Made by a program: the position numbers and the translations under genes
Notes under the pieces: model-generated
Database searches by the model: none
What the model saw: the letters and a program-made list of their open reading frames with translations, nothing else
What the model was told of the DNA's origin: nothing
From: Geotalea daltonii FRC-32
Lineage (GTDB): Bacteria > Desulfobacterota > Desulfuromonadia > Geobacterales > Geobacteraceae
Assembly (NCBI RefSeq): GCF_000022265.1
Contig: NC_011979.1
Coordinates: 720,001-752,000 of the forward strand
Reading direction: 5' to 3'
Length of the DNA: 32,000 nucleotides
Part shown: one piece after another, positions 13,324-30,138 of the stretch
Layout of the letters: each line of letters starts with the position of its first letter
Numbering within the stretch: the first letter of the stretch is position 1

Positions 13324-15087
13324 TTATTTGTCCTTTATGATCAGGTAACTTCCAAGCACAGCGCAGTCCATGTCGCTCCACTCATAGGTTTTCAGCGCGT
13401 CGAAGGCGTTGTTGACGATGGGTTCCCCCCGGCGGTTGTATGAGGTATTCATAATGACTGGCACTCCTGTCAGTTTGTTGAACTCACTGATCAGGTCATA
13501 GTAGAGGGGATTGGTATGGCGGTTTACCAACTGTACCCGTGCAGTGCCGTCCACGTGGGTGACCGAGGGGATCTGCGCCCGTTTTTCCTCCCGCACCTTG
13601 CAGACCGAGAGCATGAAGTATTCGGGATCGCAGGGGGAGTGGATGGCGCCAATGTCGAAAAATTCATCGGCCCGTTCCTCCAGCACGGCGGGTGCAAACG
13701 GCCGGAACGGTTCCCGGAACTTGATCTTCTCGTTGACGATGGCCTGCATCTGCGGATTGGTCGGATCGGCCAGGATGCTGCGGCAACCAAGCGCCCGTGG
13801 CCCCCATTCAAAACGGGACTGCATCCAGCCAATCACCTTGCCAGCGGCAAGTAACCGTGCCACTTCCTGAATCAACTGCCGCTGGTCCGAATAGTAGGAA
13901 TAAGGGGTATAGGTGCTTTTCAAAGCAGCTTCTATCTCCTCGTTCCGGTGCGCTTTGCCCAGGTACATGGAGGTGAGCGGCAGGTGATTTCGGTTCTTCA
14001 GCACCGCAAAGTTGTAATAGAGAGCTGCGCCCAGTGCTCCTCCAGCGTCCCCGGCTGCAGGATGGATATAGAGCCTGCAGTTCAGTTCCCGTTTAAGCCT
14101 GCCGTTGGCCAACGAGTTGAGCGCCACCCCTCCAGCCATACAAACATTGCTACAGCCGGTGCGTCTGATGGCTGTCCCCACCACATGGAGCAGGACCTCT
14201 TCGGTACACTTCTGGATGCTGGCGGCAATGTCAGCATAGTACCGGCACTTCTCAACATGGGCAGCTTCTTCCGGGGAATCGTCTGCCGGTTTGATCCTGA
14301 AGGGGGTCTCCGGTTGCCTCGGCGGACCAAACAGCTGGACTAGCCGGTCTGTGTAAGGCACTGTCTCAGGACATTTGAAATTGAAGCATTCTTGATCCAG
14401 ACGGAAGGTTCCATCGTTCTCCAGGCTGAACCAGGGCATTATCTGGTCAAAAAAGCGCGGGGCTCCGAATCCGGCCATGCCCATTACCTTGTACTCGTCT
14501 TCGTCGACCTTGAAGCCTAACCATGCGGTAAAGGCGCTATAAAAGAGCCCCAGGGAATGGGGCAGGTCAAGGGAGGTCAGCCGCTCGATCATTCCCCCGT
14601 CGGCGTATGAGATAGACAAGGTTTCGAATTCACCCACGCCGTCGACGGTAACAATGGCGGCTTTATCAAATGGAGAGCAAAGAAAGGCAGCGCCGGCATG
14701 GGATTCATGATGTTTGACAAAACGCACTCGTTTGGGTGAGAAGCCCAACTCTGCCGCAATCCTGCTCTCCGGGGTGAACTTTCCTTTTTTGATCCAGGAT
14801 CTTATGGTGTTGGAGAAGTATGCCCTGCTTCCGGGCAAGCTGGGCATTGCCGATTTGACGATACGCTCGAATTTTAAAAAAGGTTTCTCATAGAAGATTA
14901 CGTGATCCACCTGATCAGCCGTGATGCCGGCCGTTTCCAGGCAGAATTTAACCGCCTGCACAGGCAGGCCTGGCTCATTCTTCAGCCGGGTGAAACGCTC
15001 TTCCTGGGCTGCGGCGATTACTTTGCCGTCCTTGAGCAGGGCGGCTGCCGAGTCGTGATAATCGAATGAGAGTCCGAGAATGTACAT
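13324..15087 (-). CDS. Carbamoyltransferase, NodU/CmcH/TobZ family
   Basis: MYILGLSFDYHDSAAALLKDGKVIAAAQEERFTRLKNE... is the conserved N terminus. It has the family's typical length (587 aa) and a C-terminal YrdC/Kae1-like part (HVDGTARVQ..., NTSYNRRGEPIV). Confidence 0.9.
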   Translation of the reverse strand: MYILGLSFDYHDSAAALLKDGKVIAAAQEERFTRLKNEPGLPVQAVKFCLETAGITADQVDHVIFYEKPFLKFERIVKSAMPSLPGSRAYFSNTIRSWIKKGKFTPESRIAAELGFSPKRVRFVKHHESHAGAAFLCSPFDKAAIVTVDGVGEFETLSISYADGGMIERLTSLDLPHSLGLFYSAFTAWLGFKVDEDEYKVMGMAGFGAPRFFDQIMPWFSLENDGTFRLDQECFNFKCPETVPYTDRLVQLFGPPRQPETPFRIKPADDSPEEAAHVEKCRYYADIAASIQKCTEEVLLHVVGTAIRRTGCSNVCMAGGVALNSLANGRLKRELNCRLYIHPAAGDAGGALGAALYYNFAVLKNRNHLPLTSMYLGKAHRNEEIEAALKSTYTPYSYYSDQRQLIQEVARLLAAGKVIGWMQSRFEWGPRALGCRSILADPTNPQMQAIVNEKIKFREPFRPFAPAVLEERADEFFDIGAIHSPCDPEYFMLSVCKVREEKRAQIPSVTHVDGTARVQLVNRHTNPLYYDLISEFNKLTGVPVIMNTSYNRRGEPIVNNAFDALKTYEWSDMDCAVLGSYLIIKDK

Positions 15088-15122
15088 GCCCTACCTCTAC
15101 AGTGGGTGGTTTCGTTTCGTCT

Positions 15123-16580
15123 TTACCAGACCAGATTGTCCCTGGTGTTTTTTCGCACTGTCTTCAGTTCATCTTCAGTTGCACCGGTAATTTCCAACAA
15201 CCGTTCAATCTTGTGAGGGGCGAAGTTGATGCGGTCCCATTCGTAGGCCCGCAGGATACTCACGTCTTTAGTTGTCCACTCCTTGGAGGTTATCTGGCCG
15301 TAACGCCAGTCCACCTTGGGAATGGCTTCATTGCAGACTAAAAGTCCTTGTTCCTTGGCCAAGTAGTACAGCTTCGTTTTATAGAGGGGGACGGCGGCAT
15401 AGATCTTCACATAATCGGCGCCGCACCGTTCGGCGAAGGCCACGGTCTCCCGGATTTCATCCCAGGTCTCGCCGGGAAAGCCGATGATGAAGTTGGCAAT
15501 GCAGTAAATACCTTTTGCCTGGACCTTGGCGATGATTTCTGGAATGGCCGCCAGGTTTTTGATCGGCTTATTGACGATCTCTTTCAGTACCCGCTCATTG
15601 CCCGATTCGATGGCCACGTTGATGCCGACGCAGCCAGACTCCTTCATCAGTTCCAGCAACTCATCTGTGATGAGGAAGAGGGCGAAGGCCGAGGCAATCC
15701 ACTTCAGTTCCAGCTTGCGGTCGATCATCTCCTGGAACAGGCGCCGGGCATAGTCGTTTTCTCCCAGCAGGATGTTATCTTCATCGAAAACGATGGAGCC
15801 GATGCCGTAGCGCTCCTTGAGAAAAAAAAGCTGATCGACCACATCCACCGGATCTCTGGTTCTCACCCGGCGCCCGGCGATGGTTTCCACCTGACAAAAC
15901 GTACAACCGAAGGGACAGCCGCGGGTGGTGACCATGCGCACGTATGGATAGGCAGGGGGCATGTTTGAGGTAAAACTGCGCTGGGGCTTCTCGATGTAGG
16001 CTGCGTAGTCCACCAGTTCATAATCGGGCCAGGGAAGCACTGACAGGTCGTCAACCATGGCCTGCTGCTGTACCACCAGTTTGTCATGTCCAAAGGCAAG
16101 GCCTTTTTCCGGCAGGGGACCCCGTCCTTGCAGGTGCAGCAGCAGCTCCCGCAGCACATGCTCTCCCTCTCCGACCACGCAGTAATCGATGCTGGGGCAA
16201 CATTCCAGTACATGCTCGGGCATGGTCGTGACATGGACCCCTCCAGCAATGACGGTAATGGCGTGATCCACCTCCTTGACCAGCCTGGCGGCTCGGTAGA
16301 GGGCTTGTTCGTATTCGCTGGTGAGGAGGGATAGGCCCACATAATCGGGGGCGAAAGCGGCGATTTCTGCCTTAAAAGCTTCCTGATCCATGTTGTGGAA
16401 CTGGGCGTCGAGGACTTTTACCTCCACCAGATCCTTAACGACGGCTGCCAACAGGCAGAGGGTGGTCGGATCAAGGTTCCAGAGGGTGACGCTGTCATCC
16501 TTGTGCCAGCGCATGTTGGGGTAAGCGAGCAGCAGTCGCTTGCGCCTGGTGTCACTACTATGTTGAGTCTCAATGATCAT
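15123..16580 (-). CDS. B12-binding-domain radical SAM protein (class B, methyltransferase-like)
   Basis: The N-terminal cobalamin-binding-like domain (LLLAYPNMRW..., VGLSLLTSEY...VIAGGVHVT) is followed by TTRGCPFGCTFCQ (CxxxCxxC). The track start at 16586 is a TTG, so I use the ATG at 16580 (MIIETQ). Confidence 0.85.
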   Translation of the reverse strand: MIIETQHSSDTRRKRLLLAYPNMRWHKDDSVTLWNLDPTTLCLLAAVVKDLVEVKVLDAQFHNMDQEAFKAEIAAFAPDYVGLSLLTSEYEQALYRAARLVKEVDHAITVIAGGVHVTTMPEHVLECCPSIDYCVVGEGEHVLRELLLHLQGRGPLPEKGLAFGHDKLVVQQQAMVDDLSVLPWPDYELVDYAAYIEKPQRSFTSNMPPAYPYVRMVTTRGCPFGCTFCQVETIAGRRVRTRDPVDVVDQLFFLKERYGIGSIVFDEDNILLGENDYARRLFQEMIDRKLELKWIASAFALFLITDELLELMKESGCVGINVAIESGNERVLKEIVNKPIKNLAAIPEIIAKVQAKGIYCIANFIIGFPGETWDEIRETVAFAERCGADYVKIYAAVPLYKTKLYYLAKEQGLLVCNEAIPKVDWRYGQITSKEWTTKDVSILRAYEWDRINFAPHKIERLLEITGATEDELKTVRKNTRDNLVW

Positions 16581-16992
16581 AATCAAGTTGTTCCTGAGCT
16601 ATCAGTTCACGTGCCGCTTGAAGTGCCCGCCGGTCATGTTCGGCCATGAGCAGGTCTTCCGTTTCCCCCGGTCCGAACCATCCCCAATTTTGCCCTTCAC
16701 AGAGTTGCAGGGCATTTTTGTCCCCCCGGTAGTGTTCCATGAACAGATACAGCCGGCATTGGAGTCCTTGTACGGAAAAGGGTTGTTCCAAAACGAATCG
16801 AGGGGCGGTTAGACGGTAGCAGAGTTCTTCCTCCGTTTCGCGGATTACCGTTGCAATTGGTGATTCATGCTCCTCACAACCGCCGCCGAAAAAAGCCCAG
16901 TATCCGGGAAAGAAGGGGGCGTCATCCGTTCGGTGCTGCAGCAGGACTTTCTGTTGCCGGTCGTAGAGGAGAATGACAGCTACCCGGTGCAT
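16570..16992 (-). CDS. NUDIX hydrolase
   Basis: The Nudix box is GGGCEEHESPIATVIRETEEELC (G-x5-E-x7-REUxEExGU). Confidence 0.85.
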   Translation of the reverse strand: MHRVAVILLYDRQQKVLLQHRTDDAPFFPGYWAFFGGGCEEHESPIATVIRETEEELCYRLTAPRFVLEQPFSVQGLQCRLYLFMEHYRGDKNALQLCEGQNWGWFGPGETEDLLMAEHDRRALQAARELIAQEQLDYDH

Positions 16993-16995
16993 GGG

Positions 16996-17652
16996 CTAGC
17001 GCACCCCGACGCAAAGACAGATCAGGTAATGAGCCATTTTGCTGAAGCCGGTATGCACTACCTCATCATTCATGCTGAAGAGGAAGACATTCTTGAAGTA
17101 CTTTTCCAGGGTCGCTTTCAGATCGTTGCCGCTTTTGCAGTTAACGTGGGTGGCTCGGCTCGGCTTGGAGGCGTATTCCTGACTTTCCAGGCTGGGGATG
17201 CCGACGATGCAGACGCCATCAGCCGTGATCGAGGCGGCGACGTTTTTCAGGAATGCATCCTCGTCCTCCTTTTCCAGGTGTTCCAGTACGTCCAGCAGAT
17301 AGACCGCATCCCGCGCCGGCGAAACCGGCCCCTTGCGCAAGTCGTGGAGGGCGAAGGTTATACGCTCATTGGTTCGCATCTCCTCGCATTCTTTGATCAG
17401 TACCGGGTCCATGTCGACACAATGGATGGAGCCCACTTCCCGGGCTACGATGTTGGTGCCCCAGCCATCACCGCAACCCACCTCCAGCAGGTCTTTCTTA
17501 CCGGCAAGCATTTTGGCGATGAACTTGTAACGGGCCATGGAGAAAAGCAGCACCTTGGGGTCCATGCGCCAGCGATGACTGGACATCATGCCCAGGCGTA
17601 TCCGCTCCTCGTCCTTATATTCAATGTGTTCGCTGATATATTTGTCTTCCAT
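16996..17652 (-). CDS. Class I SAM-dependent methyltransferase
   Basis: DLLEVGCGDGWGTNIVA (motif I) ... VDMD ... AVYLLDVLEHLEKED. Confidence 0.8.
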   Translation of the reverse strand: MEDKYISEHIEYKDEERIRLGMMSSHRWRMDPKVLLFSMARYKFIAKMLAGKKDLLEVGCGDGWGTNIVAREVGSIHCVDMDPVLIKECEEMRTNERITFALHDLRKGPVSPARDAVYLLDVLEHLEKEDEDAFLKNVAASITADGVCIVGIPSLESQEYASKPSRATHVNCKSGNDLKATLEKYFKNVFLFSMNDEVVHTGFSKMAHYLICLCVGVR

Positions 17653-17661
17653 GCTCCGCTC

Positions 17662-18753
17662 CTAAATGAAGTTGATGTGCTGCGGCGGGTTTTTCAGTGT
17701 ATAGAGAAATTCGTTGATAGCGTTGGTCTTGCAGCTGGCGTAGCATTCCTCATGGACCTTGATCTCCGTCTCGATCCGCTTCATGGTCTGCCAGTAGGCG
17801 TCACTCTCGATGATGGCCTTGAATGACTGTCTGGTCAGGTCACCGAGGCAGAATTCCGGTTCCCGGTAGGAGAAGAACATGCCGCAAGGGTAGAGCTTGC
17901 CGTCGCCGCTGGAGTAGAGGAGAAAAGGGGCGCCGAGGCAGCGGTTATAGCTGCGCTTTCCTTTCCGGTTGATGTTGCCCCACTTTATCACCACTTTGAA
18001 GGTGTCGGTGGAATGTTCCTCTGCCTGCAGGAGGATGTCCCGGAACTGATCGTACTGGTCCAGTTTGTTGAAGATGCCCAAGTCATTTTGCACAGTGTCG
18101 CCGCAGTGTTTGATTTCCAGGTAATCTACCCCCAGTTCCTTTGCCAGTGAGGTAAGCGGCATAACCTCGTCAATGTCCTGCGGAGTGAGCACCATTTGAA
18201 AACCGATGGTAACGGCGGAGTTGAGCGCTTTTTTCCTTGCAATGCAGAAACGTATCTTTTCCACCAACAGGTCAAAGTCCGGGCTGTTGTGCAGACGCTG
18301 GTATGAGCCGGCTGATGCTGCGCTGATATTGAAGCGCAGCCAGGTCAGGTGTTCCAGCGCCTCCTCTCCTTGGCGGCTCGTATCGAATAAGACGCCGTTG
18401 GTTCCCAGGGCCATGTCGACCCCCGCCCGCTTTCCCGCAACGATTGCCTCATAAACATGGGGGTTGAGCAACGGCTCCGCCTCCCCGATCATGGCCATGG
18501 ATCTGACACCCATTTCACCTGCCTCGCTAACGTAGCGGAGTAGTGGCTCCCTGGGGAAAAAGACTTCCTTCCCTTGCTCATAACGGTTGCCCTGAACGAC
18601 GCCGAAGCAATAGTGGCACTTGATGTTGCATCCCTTGCTCAACCCAACGTCGATGTGCAGCGGTGGAATCCTCTTGCCGCTCATCCAGTCGTTCACTCTG
18701 TCCAGATGCCAATAAAGCTTGTGTCCATCCATGCGATAGGTGGTATCAGCCAT
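17662..18753 (-). CDS. Radical SAM protein, paralog A of a three-member set
   Basis: GCNIKCHYCFG contains the CxxxCxxC motif. It shares the N-terminal GHKLYWHLDRVN and the C-terminal NAINEFLY...HINFI with 24022-25089. Confidence 0.85.
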   Translation of the reverse strand: MADTTYRMDGHKLYWHLDRVNDWMSGKRIPPLHIDVGLSKGCNIKCHYCFGVVQGNRYEQGKEVFFPREPLLRYVSEAGEMGVRSMAMIGEAEPLLNPHVYEAIVAGKRAGVDMALGTNGVLFDTSRQGEEALEHLTWLRFNISAASAGSYQRLHNSPDFDLLVEKIRFCIARKKALNSAVTIGFQMVLTPQDIDEVMPLTSLAKELGVDYLEIKHCGDTVQNDLGIFNKLDQYDQFRDILLQAEEHSTDTFKVVIKWGNINRKGKRSYNRCLGAPFLLYSSGDGKLYPCGMFFSYREPEFCLGDLTRQSFKAIIESDAYWQTMKRIETEIKVHEECYASCKTNAINEFLYTLKNPPQHINFI

Positions 18754-19621
18754 GTATCCTTCCTTTTTCCGGCTGTAATTCGGTGCAATAGGCGCGCAGT
18801 GCCTCCCGCCAGGGACGGAGCGGCGGTACCTTCTCCGACCGCAGTGGGGTATGGCGGTTTTTCAGCCCCAGAGAGGGAAAAACCTCATGGGAAACCGGCT
18901 TCACCGCCGCTTTCAGCCCCATGATCCTATCCAGTTCCTGGATCAGCTCCCAGAGCGATGCCTCCCCCTCGTTGACCAGATGATAAAGGCCGAAAGGACG
19001 CTTTTCCTCAACCAGCCCCCTGATTGCCGTCGCCACGTCTTGGCTGTAGCTGGGTGAGGCGACAATGTCATTGGAGATGCGGAGCGGCTCCGTGCTCCGC
19101 TGCATCCGCTCCAGCATCTTTTCTACGAACTGGGGGCTGCCTGTGGTGATGCCGAATTGCACCGAGATGCGCGCGATGTAATAACGGTGGGCAATGGCGG
19201 TGATGAAGCAGTCAGCCCCGTACTTGGTGAAACCATATAGGTTAATGGGGCTGGCGGCGCTGGATTCGGCATAGGTTTCCCGGCCGGTGCCGCTGAAAAC
19301 CGCATCACTGCTGATGTGAACCAGCAGAAAACCCTGACTTGCCGAAAGCTCGGCCAGCAGCCGGGGAAAGAGGGTGTTAACAAGCAAGGCTTGGTGCGGA
19401 TCCTTTTCGCAGGCATCAACGCCGTTGAAGGCGGCGGCATTTATTACCAGCTCCGGTTTGATTTGCTGCAGCCGGCGTCTTACCTGGTCGTGATCACGTA
19501 CGTCACAAGTGGCCCGTGTAATGGGAACCAAAGTGTATCGCCCCTTTGCGAATGCGGTTGACAGGGCCGACCCCACCTTTCCGGAACTGCCGAAGATGGC
19601 TATGGTACGAATCTCGGTCAT
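18746..19621 (-). CDS. RmlD-like NAD(P)-dependent sugar reductase (dTDP-4-dehydrorhamnose reductase family, SDR)
   Basis: IAIFGSSGKVGSAL is a glycine-rich NAD(P) loop, YGFTKYGAD is YxxxK, and the length is about 290 aa. The exact substrate is unknown. Confidence 0.75.
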   Translation of the reverse strand: MTEIRTIAIFGSSGKVGSALSTAFAKGRYTLVPITRATCDVRDHDQVRRRLQQIKPELVINAAAFNGVDACEKDPHQALLVNTLFPRLLAELSASQGFLLVHISSDAVFSGTGRETYAESSAASPINLYGFTKYGADCFITAIAHRYYIARISVQFGITTGSPQFVEKMLERMQRSTEPLRISNDIVASPSYSQDVATAIRGLVEEKRPFGLYHLVNEGEASLWELIQELDRIMGLKAAVKPVSHEVFPSLGLKNRHTPLRSEKVPPLRPWREALRAYCTELQPEKGRIHG

Positions 19622-20691
19622 TAGACGAAATCCTGGTGGTTTTTGTCCACGTCCAGGTATTCCAGGACCATGCGGTTATTGCTGTCGACCACACAGTGGT
19701 GGTTGCAGTCACGGCTCGGGTCGATGCGGAAGAAGCGTGACTTGTCGCTGGACCAGAAGTCTCTAAAGCAGGTTTTGGCTATGGAACCGAGCAATCCCTG
19801 CTGAAGATTATAGGCCTTGTCGTGGCACGAATAGACGTTGAGGTCGGCGCCGATGACCGGCACGATCTGTAGATATGGGCACCAGTGGTATTCCTTGTTG
19901 AAGGTGCCCAGCTGGTAGTGGTAGGCGTCGTAAAGCTCGAAGTCGTCCTTGACCAGTTCCTGGCGGGCCCGCTGGGTCTGCTCCTTGACCGCATGGAACA
20001 GGGGCTGATGATATTTATGGTTGTCGTCGCAGTTGTTGCTGACGATGCAGGGTGAAACTTTGACGCTGTTTACCCCTGTTTCGCGGAGCAGCTTGATCAG
20101 GTCGTAAATATGGTGATAATTCCTGTTGTCGACGACGATGCAGACTCCCAGATAGCAGGGTCCGCCTATTTTTTTGAAGGCCTCGATGTTGGCGATGATC
20201 CTGGTGAACTCCCCGTCGGCGCAGCCCCGGTATTCCCGGTAGCTGGCATCATCCCAGCCATCCATGGAGACACGCAGCCAGGTGGCATGACGGGCAAAAA
20301 CCTCTGCGACTTCCCCGGTGAGTCGCGAACCATTGGTCAGGGCGGCAAACTTGATCGGGCTTTCTGCCAGTTTGCGGGCAGCCTCCAGAAGGTGCGAATA
20401 GCAGAACGGATCGCCGCCGCCGCTGAAGGTGACCGCTTTAACCCCCATTGCTATCAGGTCGTCGATTATTTCCAGCATTTTCTCCCTGGGGATGGAATCC
20501 TGTAGGTTCATATCCTGGCCCAACTGGAGGTTTTCAGCGCGGTAGGCGCAGTACCAGCAGTTGTGGTTGCAGGCATTGGTCGGCTTGATGCGCACGTTCA
20601 CAGGGGGGAGGATATTTTCCGAGGAGGCGGGCAACGAGGCGAGCTTCTCCGGGAAGTGAAAGATTTTCATTCTGGTATAAAGTAAGCCCAT
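19621..20691 (-). CDS. Radical SAM protein, paralog B
   Basis: PTNACNHNCWYCAY contains the CxxxCxxC motif. Length and layout match paralogs A and C, and the C terminus is ...VLEYLDVDKNHQDFV. Its stop shares one nucleotide with the next start (TAATG at 19623-19619). Confidence 0.8.
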   Translation of the reverse strand: MGLLYTRMKIFHFPEKLASLPASSENILPPVNVRIKPTNACNHNCWYCAYRAENLQLGQDMNLQDSIPREKMLEIIDDLIAMGVKAVTFSGGGDPFCYSHLLEAARKLAESPIKFAALTNGSRLTGEVAEVFARHATWLRVSMDGWDDASYREYRGCADGEFTRIIANIEAFKKIGGPCYLGVCIVVDNRNYHHIYDLIKLLRETGVNSVKVSPCIVSNNCDDNHKYHQPLFHAVKEQTQRARQELVKDDFELYDAYHYQLGTFNKEYHWCPYLQIVPVIGADLNVYSCHDKAYNLQQGLLGSIAKTCFRDFWSSDKSRFFRIDPSRDCNHHCVVDSNNRMVLEYLDVDKNHQDFV

Positions 20692-20700
20692 TTACGCACC

Positions 20701-21363
20701 TTATTCGAAAAATACGAACTCGTAATCGCCGCTGTAGCCGAATTCGTTAAAGAGCCAGACCCATTCCCCCGGGGTGAAGAAGGCGGCGCAGGTCAAGGCC
20801 CAGCACTGCAGGTTGAAGAGCTCTTCTTCCGTGCGGTATCCCTCCACCACCATGTATTTGCTTTTGGCGACCCGTTCCATTTCGCCCAGTGCCTTCTTCA
20901 GGTCGGGCAGGTGCAGGTTGTGCAGCGTGGTAAGGGAGATGGCCAGGTCGAACTCCTTGTCGTCGAAGGGTAGGGGGTCCTGGGCGCGGTGGAGGAACAG
21001 GCTGGTACGGATTTCTTCCTTGGCATTGGCGATGGCATATGCGGAAATGTCGAGACCGGCGATACGTGCCTTCGGCAGCAGCTGTCGCAGTTCATAGAGC
21101 AGGAAACCTTTGCCGCAGCCGATGTCCAGAATGGAGGCGTCGGCGGCCAGGTGGTAATCGCGGACAAGTTTTTCCGCCACAGGCTTCCAGCGGCCGTCGT
21201 ATTTGAACCCGCCATAGCCGTAACGCCGCTCTCCATCCCAGAAATCGGCGCCGAATTTTCGTGCCACCTTCATGCACGCCACCTTGTCGTCGCACATGCG
21301 GGACAGGTAGTCCCTTTTGGTGCTGGTGTGGAGCGGCGTGAAATAATCTCTCAAGATTCCCAT
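20701..21363 (-). CDS. Class I SAM-dependent methyltransferase
   Basis: ASILDIGCGKGFLLYEL (motif I), AGLDIS, FDLAISLTTLHNL. Confidence 0.8.
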   Translation of the reverse strand: MGILRDYFTPLHTSTKRDYLSRMCDDKVACMKVARKFGADFWDGERRYGYGGFKYDGRWKPVAEKLVRDYHLAADASILDIGCGKGFLLYELRQLLPKARIAGLDISAYAIANAKEEIRTSLFLHRAQDPLPFDDKEFDLAISLTTLHNLHLPDLKKALGEMERVAKSKYMVVEGYRTEEELFNLQCWALTCAAFFTPGEWVWLFNEFGYSGDYEFVFFE

Positions 21364-21371
21364 ATCTCTCC

Positions 21372-22283
21372 TCAGAGCAATTGCTTCACTTTTGCGGCGA
21401 TGGAGACGGCGTCAATGCCGAAAAGCCTGCGCATGCCGGCAGTGTCGTGGATCTCGTGGATAAAGCGGGAAGGCACGCCCAGGGTGGTCAGGGAGCAGGT
21501 CAGGCCGCTCTCCCTGAGAAATTCACCCATGGCGGCCCCGAAACCGCAGGAGCGGTAATGTTCTTCGACGGTGAGCACCGCCCCGATTCCCTGCAGTGCC
21601 TCGGCGAGGGCCTGACGGTTCAAGGGCTGCACCATGGGCACGGAGAGGACACGGGGGCGGATGCCGGCGTCGTGGAGGATCTGCACGGCCCTCATGGCCT
21701 CTTCGCCGATGGAGCCGTGGCAGAGGAGGGCGACGGCCTCTCCTTCGGCCAGCACCTGAGGCTTGGTGATGTCCAGATCCTGCTGCCGGTGAATATCAGG
21801 CTCACCACGCTTGGCAAGGCGCACATAGACGGGTGCCCGGGCCGACAGGGCATATTTCGCGGCAAGCCGGGCCTCCACCGGGTCGATGGGGGAAAAAACC
21901 TCCAGGTTGGGCATGGTGCGGGCCAGGGCCAGATCCTCGATGGAATAGTGGGTCATGCCCTGGGGGGCGTAGGTGACCCCGCTGCCGATGCCTGCCAGAA
22001 TCACCGGCAGGTCCTGGTAACAGATGTCGTTGCGCACCTGCTCGTAGCAGCGGTAGAGGACGAAGGGGATGATGTTGTAGAGCACCACTTTATAGCCGGT
22101 TATGGCGAGCCCGGCGGCGAAGCCGATCATGTTCTGCTCTGCTGCCCCCAGGTTTAGGAAGCGGTCGGGGTGCCGGTCCTTGAATGTATCGAAAACACCC
22201 AGCCCGGCGTCGCCGCTGATGATGAAGATGTCGTCTCGTCCGGCACAAGCGTCCAGGATGGTGTTGATGAAGGCGTTTCTCAT
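21372..22283 (-). CDS. Transketolase-family protein, C-terminal (pyrimidine-binding plus C-terminal) subunit
   Basis: FLNLGAAEQNMIGFAAGLAITGYKV ... ILAGIGSGVTYAPQGMTHYSIEDLALARTMPNLEVFSPIDPVE. An ATGA overlap links it to the N-terminal subunit gene. Confidence 0.85.
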   Translation of the reverse strand: MRNAFINTILDACAGRDDIFIISGDAGLGVFDTFKDRHPDRFLNLGAAEQNMIGFAAGLAITGYKVVLYNIIPFVLYRCYEQVRNDICYQDLPVILAGIGSGVTYAPQGMTHYSIEDLALARTMPNLEVFSPIDPVEARLAAKYALSARAPVYVRLAKRGEPDIHRQQDLDITKPQVLAEGEAVALLCHGSIGEEAMRAVQILHDAGIRPRVLSVPMVQPLNRQALAEALQGIGAVLTVEEHYRSCGFGAAMGEFLRESGLTCSLTTLGVPSRFIHEIHDTAGMRRLFGIDAVSIAAKVKQLL

Positions 22284-23062
22284 GCCAGTTCCTTTAATGC
22301 TGCGGCTTTGTGCTCGTCGGTAACCACGTAGTAGTGCCAGATGAGCTGGTCCTCCATGAAGGAAACCCCCTTGCCCTTCGTCGTCCGGGCGATGACCACC
22401 TTCGGCTTGCCGTGGGCGTCCTCATCGAGGGCCGACGTGAGTTCCCGGTGGTCGTGGCCGTCCACTTCCAGCGCATGCCAGCCGAACGCCTCCCATTTTT
22501 CCTTCATTGGCTCGAAGGCGCAGATTTCCGTGGGGCGGCCATACCCCTGAAGGTTGTTATGGTCGATGATGGCGGTAAAGTTGCCGAGGCCAAGCTTCGG
22601 CGCGAAGAGCGCCCCTTCCCAGATGGAGCCTTCCTGGGTTTCGCCGTCGCCGATCAGGGCATAGACCTTGCGCCCGTTGCCCTGCTTATTGAAGCCGTAG
22701 GCAATTCCCATCCCCATGTTGAACCCGTGCCCCAGGGAACCTGCCGAGACTTCGATCCCCTTCTCGGGGGAGCGGTCCAGGTGGGCCGGCAGGGTGCCGT
22801 TATCTCGGTAGTAACCTTCAATATCCTGATCGCTGAGGATGCCGAAGGTATGGAGAGCAGAATAAAGGGCCATGGCAGCGTGTCCCTTGCTGAGGATGAA
22901 GATGTCCCGCTCGGGCCACGGGTCGAGACGCAAGGTCCGGCAATAGAGGGTGGCCAGGATGTCCGCACAGGAGAGACAGGAACCCACATGGGGGCTCTTG
23001 GATCGGTTGGCCATTTCGATGATGGTCCGTCTAATTTGCGATGCGGTAGCAGGTGTTTTCAT
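22280..23062 (-). CDS. Transketolase-family protein, N-terminal (thiamine-diphosphate-binding) subunit
   Basis: SPHVGSCLSCADILATLY ... ILSKGHAAMALYS ... GSLGHGFNMGMGIA ... VYALIGDGETQEGSIWEGA is the TPP motif GDG-x(25-30)-N. The start overlaps the end of the GT9 gene by 32 nt. Confidence 0.85.
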   Translation of the reverse strand: MKTPATASQIRRTIIEMANRSKSPHVGSCLSCADILATLYCRTLRLDPWPERDIFILSKGHAAMALYSALHTFGILSDQDIEGYYRDNGTLPAHLDRSPEKGIEVSAGSLGHGFNMGMGIAYGFNKQGNGRKVYALIGDGETQEGSIWEGALFAPKLGLGNFTAIIDHNNLQGYGRPTEICAFEPMKEKWEAFGWHALEVDGHDHRELTSALDEDAHGKPKVVIARTTKGKGVSFMEDQLIWHYYVVTDEHKAAALKELA

Positions 23063-24011
23063 GGGCTAAGGGGGCTCCTAATATTTCGGCGGCAGCTGCC
23101 GCTATATTTCTGGTCTGGAAATGGGCCATGCACTCTTTGCCGCTTCGGCATCGAACGTCGAAGCAGGGCATGGCGGAACACCGACAGGATGAGCGGAGCA
23201 GCTTACCTCCCGTGTAGAAATAGACCTCGCTGGGATCGGTGGGGCCGAAAAGGCCGATGACCTTCTTGTGGAAGCCGAAGGCCAGGTGCATCCCCAGGCT
23301 GTCGTTGGAGATGATCAGCCGGCAGGAATTGATCCAGTTCATGTATTCGAAGAGGTTCTTGCGTCCCTCCTGCCAGGAGACGGTGTATCCATGGCGGACC
23401 AGGAGCTTTTCCAGTTGCTGCCATTTTGCCATGGGCATGCCCTTGACAGGCCACTTTGCCCCCACCTCGAAGTTGAGGCCCACATCGAAGGTTTCCTCCG
23501 TGTTCGGAACATAACCGATGACGTACTCCTGTCCTTTCCATTGGACGCCAAGCATTTCGATCAGCACTTGCTGCCAGAATCTCTTGTCATTTCCCGAATG
23601 CTTGCCCTCGATGTAGCTGATGAAGTCGAGCCCCTTTTCATAGGCATGGTAGCTGCCGCTGATGGTCTCGAAACGGAAGCCGTACTTGACCCAGGCGTCG
23701 ATCATGTCGGTAAGGGCGCAGACGCCGGGTATTTTTTCCAGGTTGATCAGCACGTCGAACTTTTCCTTCATCAACTGGAAGGGAACGAAATTGTCCCAGA
23801 TGAGGAGCCGGTCGATGTAGGGATTGCGGTAGAGAAGCGGTTCGGCGTGTTCCGAGACGAGCCAGGTAATCTGGGAATCCGGGTATCTCTCTTTCAGTGC
23901 CGAGAGGATCGGTGTGGTCCGCAGGACGTCCCCCAGGCTTGGGACCTTGCCGATCTCCGGGTCCAGGGTTTCCGAATAGCCGAGCTTGATGACGAGTATC
24001 TTAGTGCACAT
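23031..24011 (-). CDS. Glycosyltransferase family 9 (heptosyltransferase-like)
   Basis: ILVIKLGYSETLDPEIGKVPSLGDVLRTTPILSALKERYPDSQITWLV ... LIISNDSLGMHLAFGFHKKVIGLFGPTDP is the GT9 signature. It carries an unusual Cys-rich C-terminal tail, SSCRCSAMPCFDVRCRSGKEC. Confidence 0.8.
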   Translation of the reverse strand: MCTKILVIKLGYSETLDPEIGKVPSLGDVLRTTPILSALKERYPDSQITWLVSEHAEPLLYRNPYIDRLLIWDNFVPFQLMKEKFDVLINLEKIPGVCALTDMIDAWVKYGFRFETISGSYHAYEKGLDFISYIEGKHSGNDKRFWQQVLIEMLGVQWKGQEYVIGYVPNTEETFDVGLNFEVGAKWPVKGMPMAKWQQLEKLLVRHGYTVSWQEGRKNLFEYMNWINSCRLIISNDSLGMHLAFGFHKKVIGLFGPTDPSEVYFYTGGKLLRSSCRCSAMPCFDVRCRSGKECMAHFQTRNIAAAAAEILGAPLAHENTCYRIAN

Positions 24012-24021
24012 GGCGCCTCTG

Positions 24022-25089
24022 TCAGATGAAGTTCACATGCTCTACGGACGGGTACCTGATGTCGTAGAGGAAGTCGTTGATTGCATTGGGACGGCAGTTG
24101 GGGGGGCAGGTAGCCACATCCAGCCGCTGCTCCAGGTGCTCCTTTATCCGTTGCCGTTTTTTCCCCTGCCAGATCTCCCGGAATGGCCGCTCGTAGATGG
24201 AGCCGAAGACGTATTCCTTACGGTCCCAGTAGGGGAGGCAGGAAGCGATTTCGCCGGCCGAATTGACGACTGAGATGAATGAGGTGCCGAAACAACGGCG
24301 ATAGCGGCGCTGACCATATCCGGAGAAACTATCTCTCCTGGCGATGACACGGAAATTATCCGTTGACAGGGCTTCCGCCGCTGTCAGACTGTCTTCCAAA
24401 AGAGCAGCCTCAATCTGCTGCTGCATCTGGTATCCCTGTCGGCTGCTCTGCTGGACAAAGGGCTTGATGGCCAGGTAATCGGCTCCGGCATCCTTGATGA
24501 TCGCGGCTGCTTCCTTGAGAGAGGCCAGGTTTTCCGGGAGGAGGACGAATTGGGCGCCGATAGTGGTGGCGAGAGAATTCGATTTTTTGATTGCCGCCGC
24601 ATGCTTTAAAGCCTCGACCACGGTGGCAAAAACCTCGGGTTTTACCTGGTGGATGCGGGCATAGGTCTCAGGGGTCCCGCCGTTGAAGCTGAACCTGACA
24701 AAGGTGAGATGGGGAAGGATTTCCTCCGCCAGTTGCGGTGTCAGCAGTTGTCCATTGGTGAAGAGTCCCACGTCTATGCCGTTGCTCCTGGCGCGCCGGA
24801 TCATGGCGCCACAGTCGGGATGGAGGAGCGGCTCACCTTCCCCGGCGAAGAGCAGACTTTTGAGACCTGCTTCGGCAAGTTCGTCGATGAAGGTCAAGGT
24901 CCGACCGGTTTCAAGCCTGCGGTTGGGGTAGCCGATGAAGTCATAGGCGCAGAAGATGCAGCGGTGGTTGCAACTGCCCACCGGGCTGATCTCCATATAG
25001 ATGGGAAAACAGTCTCCGGTGGTCAGGTACTGGTTGACCCGGTCCAGGTGATAGGCCAGTTTATGTCCCTCGAAGTTATAGTTCCTCAT
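24022..25089 (-). CDS. Radical SAM protein, paralog C
   Basis: VGSCNHRCIFCAY contains the CxxxCxxC motif. The N-terminal GHKLAYHLDRVN and the C-terminal NAINDFLY...HVNFI match paralog A. An ATGA overlap links it to the upstream gene. Confidence 0.85.
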   Translation of the reverse strand: MRNYNFEGHKLAYHLDRVNQYLTTGDCFPIYMEISPVGSCNHRCIFCAYDFIGYPNRRLETGRTLTFIDELAEAGLKSLLFAGEGEPLLHPDCGAMIRRARSNGIDVGLFTNGQLLTPQLAEEILPHLTFVRFSFNGGTPETYARIHQVKPEVFATVVEALKHAAAIKKSNSLATTIGAQFVLLPENLASLKEAAAIIKDAGADYLAIKPFVQQSSRQGYQMQQQIEAALLEDSLTAAEALSTDNFRVIARRDSFSGYGQRRYRRCFGTSFISVVNSAGEIASCLPYWDRKEYVFGSIYERPFREIWQGKKRQRIKEHLEQRLDVATCPPNCRPNAINDFLYDIRYPSVEHVNFI

Positions 25090-26036
25090 GGAGTCGGGTG
25101 CCTTTCCGTTGGGACCGAAAAATTGTCTTGGATATTGCGGATGTTAACGCTGGTGTGGCCGAAGACCTGAAAGCGATTGGTTTTGACCTTAACGTCGCAG
25201 GGGTTGCAGTCGCCGTAATAGCGGCAAGGCCGGTACTCTTCGATGGTTTCCTGGGAAAAACCGGCATCGAGTATGTGGGCGATGGGTGACCTGTCTTTGT
25301 ACAGGTCGGAATGGCATTTGTAGACGTGGCCTGCGGGATCGACCAGTATTTCGCTGGTTCTGCACTCGCAATGCTTTGTTTTTTCGCCATCCACGCAGTC
25401 CGGGAATTTGAAGGTGCCGTAAAGTTTCCCCTTATAGTTGCCGAGAAATTCCTTTGTCCGGAAATCCAGTTCCAGCTTGCGGCACTTCTCCTGTATCTCA
25501 AGGATGTGCTTCCTGATCTCCGGGTCGGGGTGCTCGATCCCATAGAGCCCGACCCGGAAGCCGGCATCCTGCATCTTCAGGGTCTTGCGGATCAAGTCAT
25601 CGATGTCGTTCTGGCCCGGATGGTAACTGACCCGAATGGCGGCATAGGGGGCATTTCTTGTAAAACGTTCGACCGGTACTTTTTTTATGAACGCATCCAC
25701 GTCGAACATCATGTTGGTCATGAGGTCCATTTTGATTTCTTCATTGGCCTCGTTGACTAACCGATAAAACCCCTGGTGAAGGGTGGGCTCGCCCCCTTGC
25801 AGGGTGAGTGGCAGATCGTTTCGCAGCACCAGTCGATTTGCTGCAGTGATCCAGTCTTCGGCCGAGAGCATCCGCTTTGCCCGTTGGTCCGACCGTTTGG
25901 CGTTTTGATGGAGGTTAAGGCAGTAGTCGCAATGAAGGTTGCAGGCAAGAGTGAGGAAAAAGGCCACATAATTATGATGCTCCTTGGGTGTTATGGGAGG
26001 CAACTCATCAGCAAAAGCTGTAGCGGATTTCGTCAT
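25086..26036 (-). CDS. Radical SAM protein (distinct type with a Cys-rich C terminus); first gene after the sigma-54 promoter
   Basis: LTLACNLHCDYCLN contains the CxxxCxxC motif. The C-terminal cysteines are CECRTSEILVDPAGHVYKCH ... PCRYYGDCNPCD. The track start at 26042 is a TTG, so I use the ATG at 26036 (MTKSATAF), which has AAGGA 10 nt upstream. Confidence 0.8.
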   Translation of the reverse strand: MTKSATAFADELPPITPKEHHNYVAFFLTLACNLHCDYCLNLHQNAKRSDQRAKRMLSAEDWITAANRLVLRNDLPLTLQGGEPTLHQGFYRLVNEANEEIKMDLMTNMMFDVDAFIKKVPVERFTRNAPYAAIRVSYHPGQNDIDDLIRKTLKMQDAGFRVGLYGIEHPDPEIRKHILEIQEKCRKLELDFRTKEFLGNYKGKLYGTFKFPDCVDGEKTKHCECRTSEILVDPAGHVYKCHSDLYKDRSPIAHILDAGFSQETIEEYRPCRYYGDCNPCDVKVKTNRFQVFGHTSVNIRNIQDNFSVPTERHPTP

Positions 26037-26073
26037 GTACAATTGATCCTTTACCTATAGTCTGAGGATAAAA

Positions 26074-26089
26074 AGCAACTGTCGTGCCA
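26074..26089 (-). promoter_or_regulatory. Sigma-54 (RpoN) -24/-12 promoter
   Basis: The minus strand reads cTGGCACGacagTTGCTt, an exact match to TGGCAC-N5-TTGC(A/T). The GC of the -12 element lies about 35 nt upstream of the ATG at 26036. A perfect 10-bp palindrome, TCAAATTTGA (26184-26193), lies about 100 bp upstream, at a plausible distance for an enhancer-binding protein. Confidence 0.7.
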
Positions 26090-26221
26090 CAGGTATAAGG
26101 GGTGAATTTACAAAGATTTTCTATGGGGCTTCTTTTGTGTCAAATAATTGAAAAGAGATGGGTGAGATTATTCAGGGAGGAGGTCAAATTTGATGTATCT
26201 GTATTTGAGGGTCATCTACTC

Positions 26222-27397
26222 CTAGAACGGTACCAGGGCGAATCCGTCAAATTCATCGGCATTGGGATCCATGGTCTTGCCGTTTATGTCGGTGCCTGTG
26301 AACTTGAAGACCAGGTGACTTGGGTCGAAGACCCCGTCGCCGGTCTCGTTTTGGGAGAGGGTGAAGGTTACGGTGGCCTGCATCTTGGTGGCGTCGTAGG
26401 TAACCATCAGCGGGGTGGGAGGGATGGCGATTTCCGCATCGGGATCTAGGGTGATGCCGTTGTTGTAGGTTCCGCCGGTTCCACCGGCCGCCTTGGAGAT
26501 GCTCCAGTTGGCCAGGTTCTGCACCGAGACTCCATCCATCTCCGCGTTGAACTGCAGCACCATGGTGAAGTCTTTAGAAGCCGAAGGGGTTGCCAGGGAC
26601 GGATCCAGGTCGGCGACCCTGGTGCCCGGACCGAGGATGGTGTTGAAGGAGTTTTTCTGATAAATGTTTATGATGAAGGCGGGAGAGAAGAGAATACCTC
26701 CCAGTTCATCGGCCAGGGCAGGGTCCAGGGTGCTCAGGGTCTCCACCTCTTCCTGGGCCTTGTCCTTCTGGGTGGTAGCCGCATATGCCTTGCCAAGTTC
26801 CGAATGGGCAAGGGCGAAGTCCTTGTCGATTTTGACCGCCATCTGCAGCTGCTCTATGGCCTCATCATATTTGCCCATCTTGCTGTAGGCCATGCCGAGG
26901 CCATAGTATCCATGGGCATCCCTGCGGTCTATGGCGATGACTTTCTTGAACTGGGCTTCCGCTTCCTGCTCCCGACCGGTGTTCAGATAGAGAAATCCAA
27001 GGGTGTAGGGGGCATAGGTGGAAGTGGAATCAATGCGGGCAGTGGCCTGGAATTCCTTCTCCGCTTCTGGGTAGCGTTTAGCTTCAAGATAGGCATTTCC
27101 CAAGTCTTTGTGGGCCGAGGAAGAACCGGGCTCCAGCCTGACAGCATTCTTGTAGGCTGCAATGGCGTCGTTCGATTTTCCCATACCGGAATAGGCCATG
27201 CCCAGATATTTATAGGCATTGGTGGAGTCAGGGGTGAGAGCAAGGACCCTTTTCAGCTGTGAGGCCGCTCTGTCGTACTTGCCATCCTGCAAAGCCTGCA
27301 GCGCGCCGTTCATGGCGTAGTTGGCAGTCAACTGCCGTTGCGACTGAATGTCGCCAAAAGCTGCGAAAAGCTTGTCTGCATTTGACATGGAATCCAT
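26222..27397 (-). CDS. TPR-repeat protein with a C-terminal beta-rich (Ig-like?) domain
   Basis: About six TPR motifs are present (AYKYLGMAYSGMGKSNDAIAAYKNAVRLEP, AHKDLGNAYLEAKRYPEAEKEF, YGLGMAYSKMGKYDEAIEQLQMAVKID, and others). They are followed by about 170 aa rich in T/G/D/N beta-strand pattern. No signal peptide is seen. GAAGGGG lies 7 nt before the ATG. Confidence 0.8.
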   Translation of the reverse strand: MDSMSNADKLFAAFGDIQSQRQLTANYAMNGALQALQDGKYDRAASQLKRVLALTPDSTNAYKYLGMAYSGMGKSNDAIAAYKNAVRLEPGSSSAHKDLGNAYLEAKRYPEAEKEFQATARIDSTSTYAPYTLGFLYLNTGREQEAEAQFKKVIAIDRRDAHGYYGLGMAYSKMGKYDEAIEQLQMAVKIDKDFALAHSELGKAYAATTQKDKAQEEVETLSTLDPALADELGGILFSPAFIINIYQKNSFNTILGPGTRVADLDPSLATPSASKDFTMVLQFNAEMDGVSVQNLANWSISKAAGGTGGTYNNGITLDPDAEIAIPPTPLMVTYDATKMQATVTFTLSQNETGDGVFDPSHLVFKFTGTDINGKTMDPNADEFDGFALVPF

Positions 27398-27433
27398 ACA
27401 TACACCCCTTCACTGTACAGCGATCTTTTCTTC

Positions 27434-27461
27434 TTATCGTCACCCGGCATCGTTAACTTGA
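27434..27461 (-). promoter_or_regulatory. Possible sigma-28 (FliA)-like promoter upstream of the TPR gene
   Basis: The minus strand reads TCAAGTTA-N12-GACGATAA, compared with the enterobacterial consensus TAAAGTTT-N11-GCCGATAA. That is 6/8 and 7/8 matches with a spacer one nucleotide longer. It lies about 45 nt upstream of the ATG at 27397. Confidence 0.25.
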
Positions 27462-27516
27462 GCAAAAAGTGCGTCCGAATCGGTTTGTCAATTTTTTGAT
27501 TCTTGCTGCAGGCAGA

Positions 27517-28146: not shown

Positions 28147-28269
28147 GTCTTCTCCATTGTCTTTTGCATACTTATGCCACAGCCTTGGGTGGAGAGAAAG
28201 GGAAAGTTGCATCGCCAGTGGCCGTTGCTAAAGGGGGGGGCAGGGGGTAAAATTGAAACGCCGGCTTAG

Positions 28270-30127: not shown

Positions 30128-30138
30128 CATCGGGATTA

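Follow-up and report, generated by a model that had tools for sequence, protein, structure and literature searches.

A widespread cassette of radical S-adenosylmethionine enzymes and a split transketolase in Geotalea daltonii, a candidate route to a branched or chain-extended surface sugar

A 32,000-nucleotide stretch of the genome of Geotalea daltonii FRC-32 (NC_011979.1, positions 720,001 to 752,000; hereafter the window, to which all coordinates refer unless another locus is named) carries a long minus-strand operon that starts near 27.4 kb and continues beyond position 1, its neighbouring genes overlapping by 1-32 nt or being separated by gaps of at most about 35 nt. Within this operon, between positions 15123 and 26036, five radical S-adenosylmethionine (SAM) genes are interleaved with genes for a two-subunit transketolase, a GT9-family glycosyltransferase, two methyltransferases, an RmlD-like reductase and a NUDIX hydrolase, and a sixth radical-SAM gene lies further downstream. 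A first-pass annotation had seen in the segment a candidate pathway to one unusual sugar, and the open reading frames (ORFs) that it listed were all recovered, on the minus strand and with the same coordinates, when ORFs and Pfam domains were checked. The cassette found here is best called a combination of thiamine-dependent sugar branching and radical-SAM sugar tailoring, notable for the breadth of its distribution and for the conservation of two of its proteins, the methyltransferase MT1 and the radical-SAM protein rSAM_C.

In the direction of transcription, the segment begins with rSAM_A (25086-26036), a divergent radical-SAM protein of 316 aa with 33.0 bits for the Radical_SAM family PF04055 and the motif CX3CX2C at residues 32-39; its ATG lies at 26036 and an alternative TTG at 26042. 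It is followed by rSAM_B (24022-25089), which matches PF04055 and PF13186 and ends in a twitch/SPASM-type cysteine cluster, and by the GT9-family glycosyltransferase-like protein (23031-24011; Glyco_transf_9 PF01075, 51.3 bits against a threshold of 22). The transketolase is divided into an N-terminal thiamine diphosphate-binding subunit, TKN (22280-23062; Transketolase_N, 1.5e-35; 244 aa if an alternative start is used), and a C-terminal pyrimidine-binding subunit, TKC (21372-22283; Transket_pyr and Transketolase_C). MT1 (20701-21363), a class I SAM methyltransferase of 220 aa according to Pfam, and rSAM_C (19621-20691), a PF04055 protein of 356 aa, come next. PF04055 exceeds its gathering score in all six radical-SAM proteins (33.0-87.5 bits against 29.5) and the canonical CX3CX2C is present in all six, which places them in the radical SAM superfamily, with rSAM_A as a borderline member. 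Five accessory genes follow: the RmlD-like NAD(P)-dependent reductase (18746-19621; RmlD_sub_bind PF04321, 198 bits), rSAM_D with a SPASM domain (17662-18753; PF04055 and PF13186), a second class I SAM methyltransferase, MT2 (16996-17652; Pfam), the NUDIX hydrolase (16570-16992; PF00293, 60 bits) and a B12-binding radical-SAM protein (15123-16580; PF02310, 69.8 bits, and PF04055, 87.5 bits), for which an alternative TTG start exists at 16586.

These genes belong to two blocks. In the nearest genome, that of Geotalea toluenoxydans JCM 15764, window positions 19652-30887 align at 92.6% nucleotide identity, while 6941-19652 lack a counterpart at the corresponding locus (L008) though its flanks are 78-93% identical; in that slot G. 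toluenoxydans carries a C-methyltransferase, a WbuC-cupin and B12 genes. The 11 kb taken together in the first-pass annotation therefore join a conserved cassette at 19.6-26.0 kb, comprising rSAM_A, rSAM_B, GT9, the split transketolase, MT1 and rSAM_C, to the initial third, at 15.1-19.6 kb, of a tailoring block that varies between strains, and the idea that they serve a single glycan building block was not borne out. The left breakpoint of the replacement falls inside or beside rSAM_C, whose protein identity to G. toluenoxydans drops to 79%. A conserved part next to a replaced segment is a pattern typical of surface-glycan loci.

The distribution of the cassette was followed through rSAM_C, its most conserved gene. 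The family contains 2360 database clusters at E<=1e-10, with named members in Geobacter, Desulfuromonadaceae, Sedimentisphaerales, Sulfuricella and Omnitrophota. A species scan, with one genome per species and relatives confirmed by tblastn, found at least 544 stretches carrying rSAM_C relatives, among others in Geobacterales, anammox bacteria and Omnitrophota; the 80 best are 58-82% identical to rSAM_C across phyla and domains, and the best carriers include Brocadia and other Planctomycetota, Nitrospirota, Myxococcota, Arcobacter, Methanoperedens and other archaea. Hence the cluster, whose many radical enzymes had been called unusual, is not a peculiarity of one genome, and the window holds one instance of a very widespread cassette.

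Synteny was surveyed in 59 loci of at least 15 kb, drawn from the 80 loci most similar to rSAM_C and taken with 10-kb flanks, by matching their ORFs to the window proteins. rSAM_C was found in 59/59 loci and MT1 in 55/59, the two being neighbours in 47/59; rSAM_B was present in 46/59, mostly just upstream of the transketolase, TKN in 45/59 and TKC in 44/59. The order TKN-TKC-MT1-rSAM_C runs without interruption in 33/59 loci, and in 17 it does so with rSAM_B directly in front. Thus rSAM_B, TKN, TKC, MT1 and rSAM_C form a widespread five-gene core, and the survey of neighbourhood conservation that had been recommended earlier shows its synteny to be kept across related loci. Median identity is 62-65% for rSAM_C and MT1 and 38-44% for the transketolase subunits and rSAM_B. 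Relatives of the B12 radical-SAM protein occur in 30/59 loci, GT9 in 22/59, rSAM_A in 19/59 and MT2 in 8/59. Close orthologues of the RmlD-like protein are found in 6/59 (22/59 for a looser cluster of short-chain dehydrogenases/reductases, SDRs), rSAM_D in 3/59, where it travels with the RmlD-like gene, and NUDIX and rSAM_E in 1/59 each. The RmlD-like protein, NUDIX, rSAM_D and the B12 enzyme, formerly counted as parts of one pathway, are therefore accessory and not core; the exact RmlD-like sequence was met only on a few Logan metagenome contigs. The number and combination of radical-SAM genes vary among the related loci, reaching seven or more.

Cultured or named carriers are Trichlorobacter lovleyi, Citrifermentans bremense, G. 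toluenoxydans, Geobacter sp. OR-1, with seven radical-SAM genes in 20 kb, and Solidesulfovibrio carbinolicus. In T. lovleyi the gene order equals that of the window and is preceded by two nucleoside diphosphate (NDP)-sugar dehydrogenases and a histidine kinase with a sigma-54 response regulator. On a T. lovleyi-type contig (L092, 6155-10004) two UDP-glucose/GDP-mannose dehydrogenase genes flank an extra radical-SAM gene of 414 aa directly upstream of rSAM_A; the transketolase C subunit of the same contig was called at only 161 aa. A plasmid collection gave one close match, S. carbinolicus pDCAR1, where the annotation is generic only.

Both transketolase subunits find their best match in the split enzyme of Carboxydothermus hydrogenoformans (TKN with 6YAK at 9e-61, TKC with 6YAJ at 1e-44), with which they share the two-chain architecture and the thiamine motifs; TKN keeps the GDG..NN motif and the catalytic His residues. 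To examine the substrate pocket, 57 TKC proteins linked to the cassette were aligned with their human and Carboxydothermus counterparts, in human transketolase numbering. We take His416, Ser345 and Arg474 of the human enzyme to bind the substrate phosphate, Asp424 to bind the C2-OH of the acceptor and Glu366 to activate the cofactor. In the cassette proteins His416 is replaced by Gly (56/57), Ser345 by Gly or Ile (53/57), Asp424 by Gln, Leu, Ala or Met (54/57) and Arg474 by Lys or Thr (54/57), while the equivalents of Glu366 (E49; 57/57) and of the catalytic His473 of the Escherichia coli enzyme (H112; 55/57) are kept. The window protein follows this pattern: both kept residues are present, and Gly, Gly, Gln and Lys at positions 345, 416, 424 and 474 stand in place of the sugar-phosphate-binding residues expected of a transketolase of EC 2.2.1.1. 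The Carboxydothermus enzyme, in contrast, retains the equivalents of His416 and Asp424 and has Arg where the window protein has Lys. Since the cofactor and catalytic residues are kept and those for the phosphate and the C2-OH are lost, the cassette transketolase is predicted to be catalytically competent and unsuited to ordinary sugar phosphates.

A second indication of the reaction comes from loci in which another thiamine enzyme stands in its place. In 9 of the 13 loci without the split transketolase a thiamine enzyme of the acetolactate synthase (ALS) fold is found, and in 7 of the 10 loci carrying this ALS-like enzyme it is located between rSAM_B and MT1-like/rSAM_C. Its alignment with JanthE (8RPH) runs from end to end and has an E of 1e-144, the second-best match being at 3e-87. 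JanthE is a YerE-like enzyme that couples aldehydes to ketones and whose physiological substrate is unknown (PMC12188165), and YerE-like enzymes branch cytidine diphosphate (CDP)-linked keto-sugars of lipopolysaccharide (LPS), yielding yersiniose, erwiniose and caryophyllose (PMC12247030). The likeness of the cassette to the YerE-like group (YpYerE, ErwE, MMAR_2332 and JanthE) thus resides in thiamine-dependent C-C coupling to a keto-sugar in LPS or glycan loci and in the JanthE homologue that fills the transketolase slot of cassette variants. It ends there, because the window enzyme has the transketolase fold instead of the TPP_enzyme_N/M/C arrangement of ALS-type enzymes and the described YerE pathways have no radical-SAM partners. 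In eight loci, among them L071 (6611-9310), the JanthE-like enzyme has about 230 additional, conserved aa at its N-terminus. This extension gave only sub-threshold matches to cupins and mannose-6-phosphate isomerase (E 0.07), and none to the WbuC cupin.

[quoted passage not shown] They resemble the cassette enzyme in having two subunits and acting after a keto-forming step on a sugar; the comparison, made by description, is limited in that the 13 predicted enzymes all come from Streptomycetes, belong to nucleoside-antibiotic clusters and include none characterised in vitro (PMC12247030), while the present one comes from a Geobacter relative and a surface-glycan operon in which the presumed keto-former is a radical-SAM protein. 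The thiamine-dependent addition of two carbons to a keto-sugar, raised in the first-pass annotation from general chemistry, thereby gains support from both the remodelled acceptor and phosphate pocket and the replacement by a JanthE/YerE-like enzyme.

The radical-SAM proteins of the cassette are partly related to one another, rSAM_B, rSAM_C and rSAM_D being paralogous (32% identity between B and D, 23% between B and C). rSAM_B, C, D and E fall in the SPASM/twitch subgroup: PF13186 is matched by B, D and E, and rSAM_C, which gives no PF13186 match, has C271, C289, C329 and C333. In the rSAM_C family CX3CX2C and C179, C215, C271, C289, C329 and C333 are invariant, a pattern compatible with a predicted auxiliary cluster. 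The nearest sequences in the PDB are DesII (9e-10) and BlsE for rSAM_B and BlsE (5e-8) for rSAM_C. These enzymes act on nucleotide-linked sugars, a thymidine diphosphate (TDP)-sugar and cytosylglucuronate, respectively; they differ from the cassette proteins in identity (about 20%), in their NCBIfam models (DesII 57 against 450 bits, BlsE 45 against 400) and in the four conserved C-terminal Cys of rSAM_B, C and D. None of the named radical-SAM equivalogs (DesII, BlsE, viperin, MoaA, anSME, maturases of ribosomally synthesised and post-translationally modified peptides (RiPPs) and others) was reached in NCBIfam, the scores being 40-88 bits against 180-650. Foldseek comparison of the AlphaFold2 (AF2) model of rSAM_C (mean predicted local distance difference test, pLDDT, 70.8) with the PDB returned SkfB, BlsE, DesII, viperins and SuiB, all with template modelling (TM) scores of 0.44-0.54, too even to discriminate between them; for the rSAM_A model (pLDDT 68.6) there was no PDB match at E<1e-3. 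Both models were of moderate confidence only. The protein at 15123-16580 has the class B architecture, with an N-terminal B12-binding domain followed by the radical-SAM domain, and is presumed to be a class B radical-SAM methylase; among characterised class B subfamilies none fits, the best NCBIfam model being the Sden_1168 P-methyltransferase family (178 against 575 bits).

Among the accessory proteins, the RmlD-like reductase aligns with PF04321 over positions 2-285 of 287, with GxxGxxG and YxxxK intact. The earlier description as an RmlD-type 4-ketoreductase-like SDR is thus upheld in fold and motifs, but the equivalog cut-off of TIGR01214 is not reached (196.0 against 224.05 bits). Radical-SAM sugar dehydratase and dehydrogenase systems such as AprD4/AprD3 and BtrN pair a radical-SAM enzyme with an NAD(P)H reductase. 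The overlapping rSAM_C, RmlD-like and rSAM_D genes recall them in gene pairing only, and the NCBIfam model of AprD4 matches only the B12 enzyme (62 against 500 bits). The NUDIX assignment was confirmed by its Pfam score and by a Nudix box, GX5EX7REX2EE, at residues 37-57 (GGCEEHESPIATVIRETEEEL), of which only the terminal GU is missing.

The GT9-like protein shows the motifs LGDvlxTTP in its N-terminal and NDSlgMH in its C-terminal part, aligned to the GT9 structures 3TOV and 1PSW. Membership in the family therefore stands, but the heptosyltransferase I, II and III equivalogs are far from reached (51-54 bits against 135-185). The C-terminal tail is Cys-rich (CRCSAMPCFDVRCRSGKEC) and lies outside the region aligned to the solved GT9 structures. 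GT9 accompanies rSAM_A in 19/19 loci. A GT9, HldE-like or GmhA-like gene is present in 40/59 loci; HldE-like proteins were found in 18/59 (163 against 521 bits) and GmhA-like SIS proteins in 14/59 (75 against 209 bits). GT9 and HldE-like genes occur together in 0 loci (uncorrected hypergeometric P 2.7e-5). The pair of rSAM_A and GT9, on the one hand, and the HldE-like, GmhA-like and GSU2086-family genes, on the other, look like alternative front ends of the same cassette. From the GT9 motifs and the HldE-like and GmhA-like neighbours a likeness to the ADP-heptose pathway and its heptosyltransferases can be drawn, and a heptose or higher-carbon origin of the sugar may be hypothesised; it is set against this likeness that no equivalog cut-off of the pathway is reached, that the window contains neither an HldE nor a GmhA gene, and that GT9 and HldE-like genes are never found together in the surveyed loci.

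The neighbourhood of the cassette is that of carbohydrate biosynthesis, the rSAM_C relatives always standing amid genes for nucleotide sugars or glycans. The surveyed loci contain a true GDP-mannose 4,6-dehydratase equivalog, Gmd (28/59; 473 bits against a cut-off of 415), a TylC3-type C-methyltransferase (17/59), a WbuC-family cupin (16/59), DegT aminotransferases and TIGR04372 glycosyltransferases (14/59 each) and the GSU2086-family protein (11/59); Glf, nucleotidyltransferase, GT2 proteins, FabG-like SDRs and an ATP-binding cassette (ABC) exporter are also recurrent. On the complete plasmid pDCAR1, TKC-MT1-rSAM_C (56% identity) lie within an island of about 60 kb that contains pseB, pseC, pseF, a NeuB-like gene, a Maf-like gene and an operon of HldE-like, SIS and radical-SAM genes. 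With the Gmd, DegT, TylC3-type, WbuC, HldE/GmhA-like, Glf and Pse/Neu neighbours taken together, the carbohydrate setting claimed at the outset is strongly supported.

Downstream of the B12 enzyme the operon continues with a NodU/CmcH-type carbamoyltransferase (13324-15087; Carbam_trans_N and Carbam_trans_C) and a 462-aa protein of no recognised family (11935-13323; no significant Pfam match, GDSL-like at E 0.12). A 461-aa gene, likewise of no recognised family, lies directly upstream of a giant glycosyltransferase/methyltransferase gene in L005 (18856-20241), in a position like that of 11935-13323. Then come rSAM_E (10509-11690), the sixth radical-SAM protein, of SPASM/twitch type (PF04055 and PF13186; CX3CX2C at residues 25-32), a 351-aa protein matching neither Pfam nor NCBIfam (9521-10576), an FkbM-family methyltransferase (8409-9524; PF05050 and TIGR01444) and a tetratricopeptide repeat (TPR) protein with a weak TIGR04372-type glycosyltransferase domain (7046-8455; 23.8 bits against a cut-off of 45). 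The giant glycosyltransferase protein mentioned in the first-pass annotation was found as a minus-strand ORF from 7026 that runs past the window start (1-7026), with at least 2341 aa, a GT4, three GT2 and two methyltransferase domains and TPR. Its extension beyond the window edge explains its absence from the program-made ORF list, and since it occupies 1-7026, those ORFs of the list that lie on the plus strand in 1-7000 are antisense artefacts. Over 4307-6941 its nucleotide sequence is 78% identical to that of G. toluenoxydans. The combination of TPR and glycosyltransferase in the 7046-8455 protein and the giant protein resembles, by architecture only, the FlmG-type O-glycosyltransferases, in which the TPR part binds flagellin (PMC7591256); the window differs in containing no flagellin gene.

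Upstream of the cassette a TPR-repeat protein (26222-27397; Pfam) and, just upstream of its gene, a catechol-type O-methyltransferase (27517-28212; PF01596) are encoded on the minus strand; TPR genes also border homologous loci. The right boundary of the glycan locus is marked by a plus-strand housekeeping flank (28405-31604) with MsrB, DUF3108 and a YdcZ exporter. On the minus strand at 26074-26089, 32-47 nt upstream of rSAM_A, lies a sigma-54-type promoter consensus, TGGCACGACAGTTGCT. No other site in the window fits the consensus without a mismatch, and L008 of G. toluenoxydans has the identical sequence. Across 3.1 Mb of related loci the strict motif turned up 7 times; upstream of rSAM_A it is shared with this closest genome only, being absent from the more distant related loci. 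The motif suggests that the surface-glycan operon is probably driven by a sigma-54 promoter. Sigma-54-type response regulators were also seen bordering the homologous loci L005 and L006 and T. lovleyi L092. An Rfam search returned no riboswitch or other RNA.

From the observed gene content, motifs, synteny, distribution, pocket changes and slot replacement we infer a scheme in which every chemical step, the step order and the acceptor are conjectural. In the scheme, the twitch-type rSAM_B would generate or unmask, independently of oxygen, a carbonyl on a nucleotide-activated sugar. To this carbonyl the split transketolase-like enzyme would add a two-carbon unit, hydroxyacetyl or acetyl, giving a C-branched or chain-extended sugar. 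MT1 would methylate the branched or extended product, and rSAM_C would carry out a further radical step, for example a deoxygenation, an epimerisation or a rearrangement. Strain-specific diversification could then be provided by the RmlD-like ketoreductase, rSAM_D, MT2, the B12 C-methylase, the carbamoyltransferase, the FkbM methyltransferase and rSAM_E, and GT9, the TPR-glycosyltransferase protein and the giant multidomain protein might place the product on a surface glycoconjugate. Accordingly worded, our proposal is that the cassette tailors a nucleotide-activated keto-sugar by thiamine-dependent two-carbon branching or extension together with radical-SAM chemistry, methylation and reduction, and that the product is then transferred to a surface glycoconjugate; we give this a probability of roughly 0.55, and a much lower one to any particular sugar. 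More tentatively, and as a possibility that we would still rate below an even chance, the cassette may be a route, independent of oxygen and not recognised before, by which hundreds of anaerobic species of bacteria and archaea make a surface sugar that is C-branched or two-carbon-extended, methylated and possibly heptose-derived and higher-carbon. That the segment maps to no characterised pathway has held: neither the NCBIfam models nor full-text literature searches gave a matching cluster, and no description of the cassette was found in the latter.

Several observations weigh against the proposal: (i) the window contains no nucleotidyltransferase, 4,6-dehydratase or aminotransferase, so that it does not define the starting sugar; (ii) no transketolase has yet been shown in vitro to branch a keto-sugar (PMC12247030); (iii) the slot replacement is circumstantial, and one locus (L047) holds both thiamine enzymes; (iv) DesII and BlsE are only remotely similar (E 1e-8 to 1e-10), and Foldseek places the RiPP maturase SkfB about level with them; (v) members of both the rSAM_A/GT9 set and the HldE-like/GmhA-like/GSU2086-family set are found in only one locus, which is unexplained; (vi) some loci sit in pseudaminic-acid or flagellin-type islands, where the cassette might build a substituent and not the sugar skeleton; and (vii) the locus counts rest on crude stop-to-stop ORF calls, 10-kb flanks and the 80 most rSAM_C-like loci. 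Two further comparisons were tried and given up. The analogy with TunB/TunM, a radical-SAM and methyltransferase-like pair leading to a high-carbon sugar, was dropped because deletions exclude a biosynthetic role of TunM (PMC6105854). The S-layer O-glycan of Kuenenia contains an unidentified residue of 174 Da (PMC5088730), which is the calculated residue mass of a yersiniose-type C8 branched dideoxyhexose; as no Kuenenia-named match appeared in the top 120 of a Brocadia rSAM_C search, a link to this glycan is not established.

Part of the evidence could also be accommodated by chain building on a sugar phosphate or free sugar, in which the transketolase would make a non-canonical ketose, GmhA-like and HldE-like proteins would isomerise it and activate it with a nucleotide, and the radical-SAM enzymes would act later, much as in the lincomycin octose route for the chain building and activation. 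The unusual aldose acceptor might be unphosphorylated, for instance 5-deoxyribose arising from the radical-SAM by-product 5'-deoxyadenosine, a reading that fits the loss of the phosphate-binding His and Ser of the transketolase. There is a precedent in a Synechococcus transketolase that converts 5-deoxyribose to 7-deoxysedoheptulose (PMC8102628; 10.1101/2020.12.30.424818). In L004, L059 and L032 HldE-like and GmhA-like genes directly precede rSAM_B and the transketolase, both proteins are divergent, as their scores show, and the Pfam-labelled genes of L004, the only locus checked, include no GmhB-type phosphatase. However, HldE-like genes are absent within 10 kb in 41/59 loci, the window included, no nucleosidase or phosphorylase for the salvage of 5'-deoxyadenosine was seen in the loci, and the replacement by a YerE/JanthE-like enzyme suggests that the acceptor is a ketone and the donors are 2-oxoacids, and not that a ketol unit passes to an aldose. 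We consider this route unlikely. The pseudaminic-acid islands raise the different possibility that the product of the cassette is no sugar but a small group, for example an acyl or alkyl chain of C2-C4 bearing a methyl, with which a nonulosonic acid or an ordinary sugar is decorated, as happens in flagellin glycosylation islands. On pDCAR1 the TKC-MT1-rSAM_C genes are surrounded by pseB, pseC, pseF, the Maf-like gene and a second split transketolase with FabG and ATP-grasp, L003 has NeuB, NeuC and NeuA downstream, and MT1 and rSAM_C are far better conserved than the sugar genes around them. NeuB-type genes, though, occur in only about 7/59 loci, and the cassette is not accompanied by an acyl carrier protein, a ligase or an acyltransferase; moreover, the nearest solved radical-SAM relatives work on nucleotide-linked sugars and YerE-like enzymes are known for branching sugar rings, so that we regard a substituent as improbable.

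Similarly improbable, in our view, is a mosaic of independent tailoring enzymes that serve several different sugars within one polysaccharide. The crowding of radical-SAM genes would then simply show the way in which anaerobes perform sugar chemistry. The swap of 6941-19652 beside the 92.6% identical 19652-30887, the rarity of RmlD-like, rSAM_D, MT2, NUDIX and rSAM_E genes in related loci and the varied combinations of up to seven or more radical-SAM genes per locus are what such a mosaic would give; the order and adjacency of the four- to five-gene core, kept across phyla and domains, argue instead for one functional unit, and the window genes are translationally coupled. Finally, SPASM domains are typical of peptide maturases, SkfB is the top Foldseek match of rSAM_C and a 61-aa ORF (11727-11912) lies upstream of rSAM_E, from which it might be thought that the SPASM/twitch enzymes mature a RiPP or a cofactor and that the sugar genes are bystanders. 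This is highly improbable: genes for a precursor-like peptide, a leader peptidase or a dedicated exporter are all missing, nothing about the 61-aa ORF supports its being a RiPP precursor, the NCBIfam models of RiPP maturases score far below their cut-offs, and it is a thiamine enzyme and a methyltransferase, amid glycan genes, that are conserved alongside the radical-SAM proteins. Action on a non-carbohydrate substrate had been named in the first-pass annotation as an outcome that would overturn it; the small-ORF check of the window found no precursor-like peptide gene beside the radical-SAM genes, and hence no sign of such a substrate.

If the proposed tailoring of a keto-sugar is correct, the cassette would constitute a new and very widespread oxygen-free way to branched or extended sugars. 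It would also provide natural examples, from outside Streptomyces, of ketone-accepting split transketolases, whose activity is wanted for the preparation of tertiary alcohols but still awaits demonstration in vitro (PMC12247030). On the more tentative reading given above, this would be the first physiological role of such an enzyme outside Streptomyces antibiotics, and radical-SAM enzymes would replace the NAD- or pyridoxamine phosphate (PMP)-dependent keto-forming and deoxygenating steps of classical deoxysugar pathways. A function would be given to three large radical-SAM families without a curated model name, one of which, rSAM_C, is about 60% identical from Geobacter to archaea. The cultured carriers make the question directly testable. 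To our knowledge, the glycans of environmentally important anaerobes such as metal reducers, anammox bacteria, Omnitrophota, Nitrospirota and Methanoperedens are almost unstudied; in all these groups, with the Nitrospirota represented by magnetotactic members, the cassette would mark an unusual surface-sugar chemistry.

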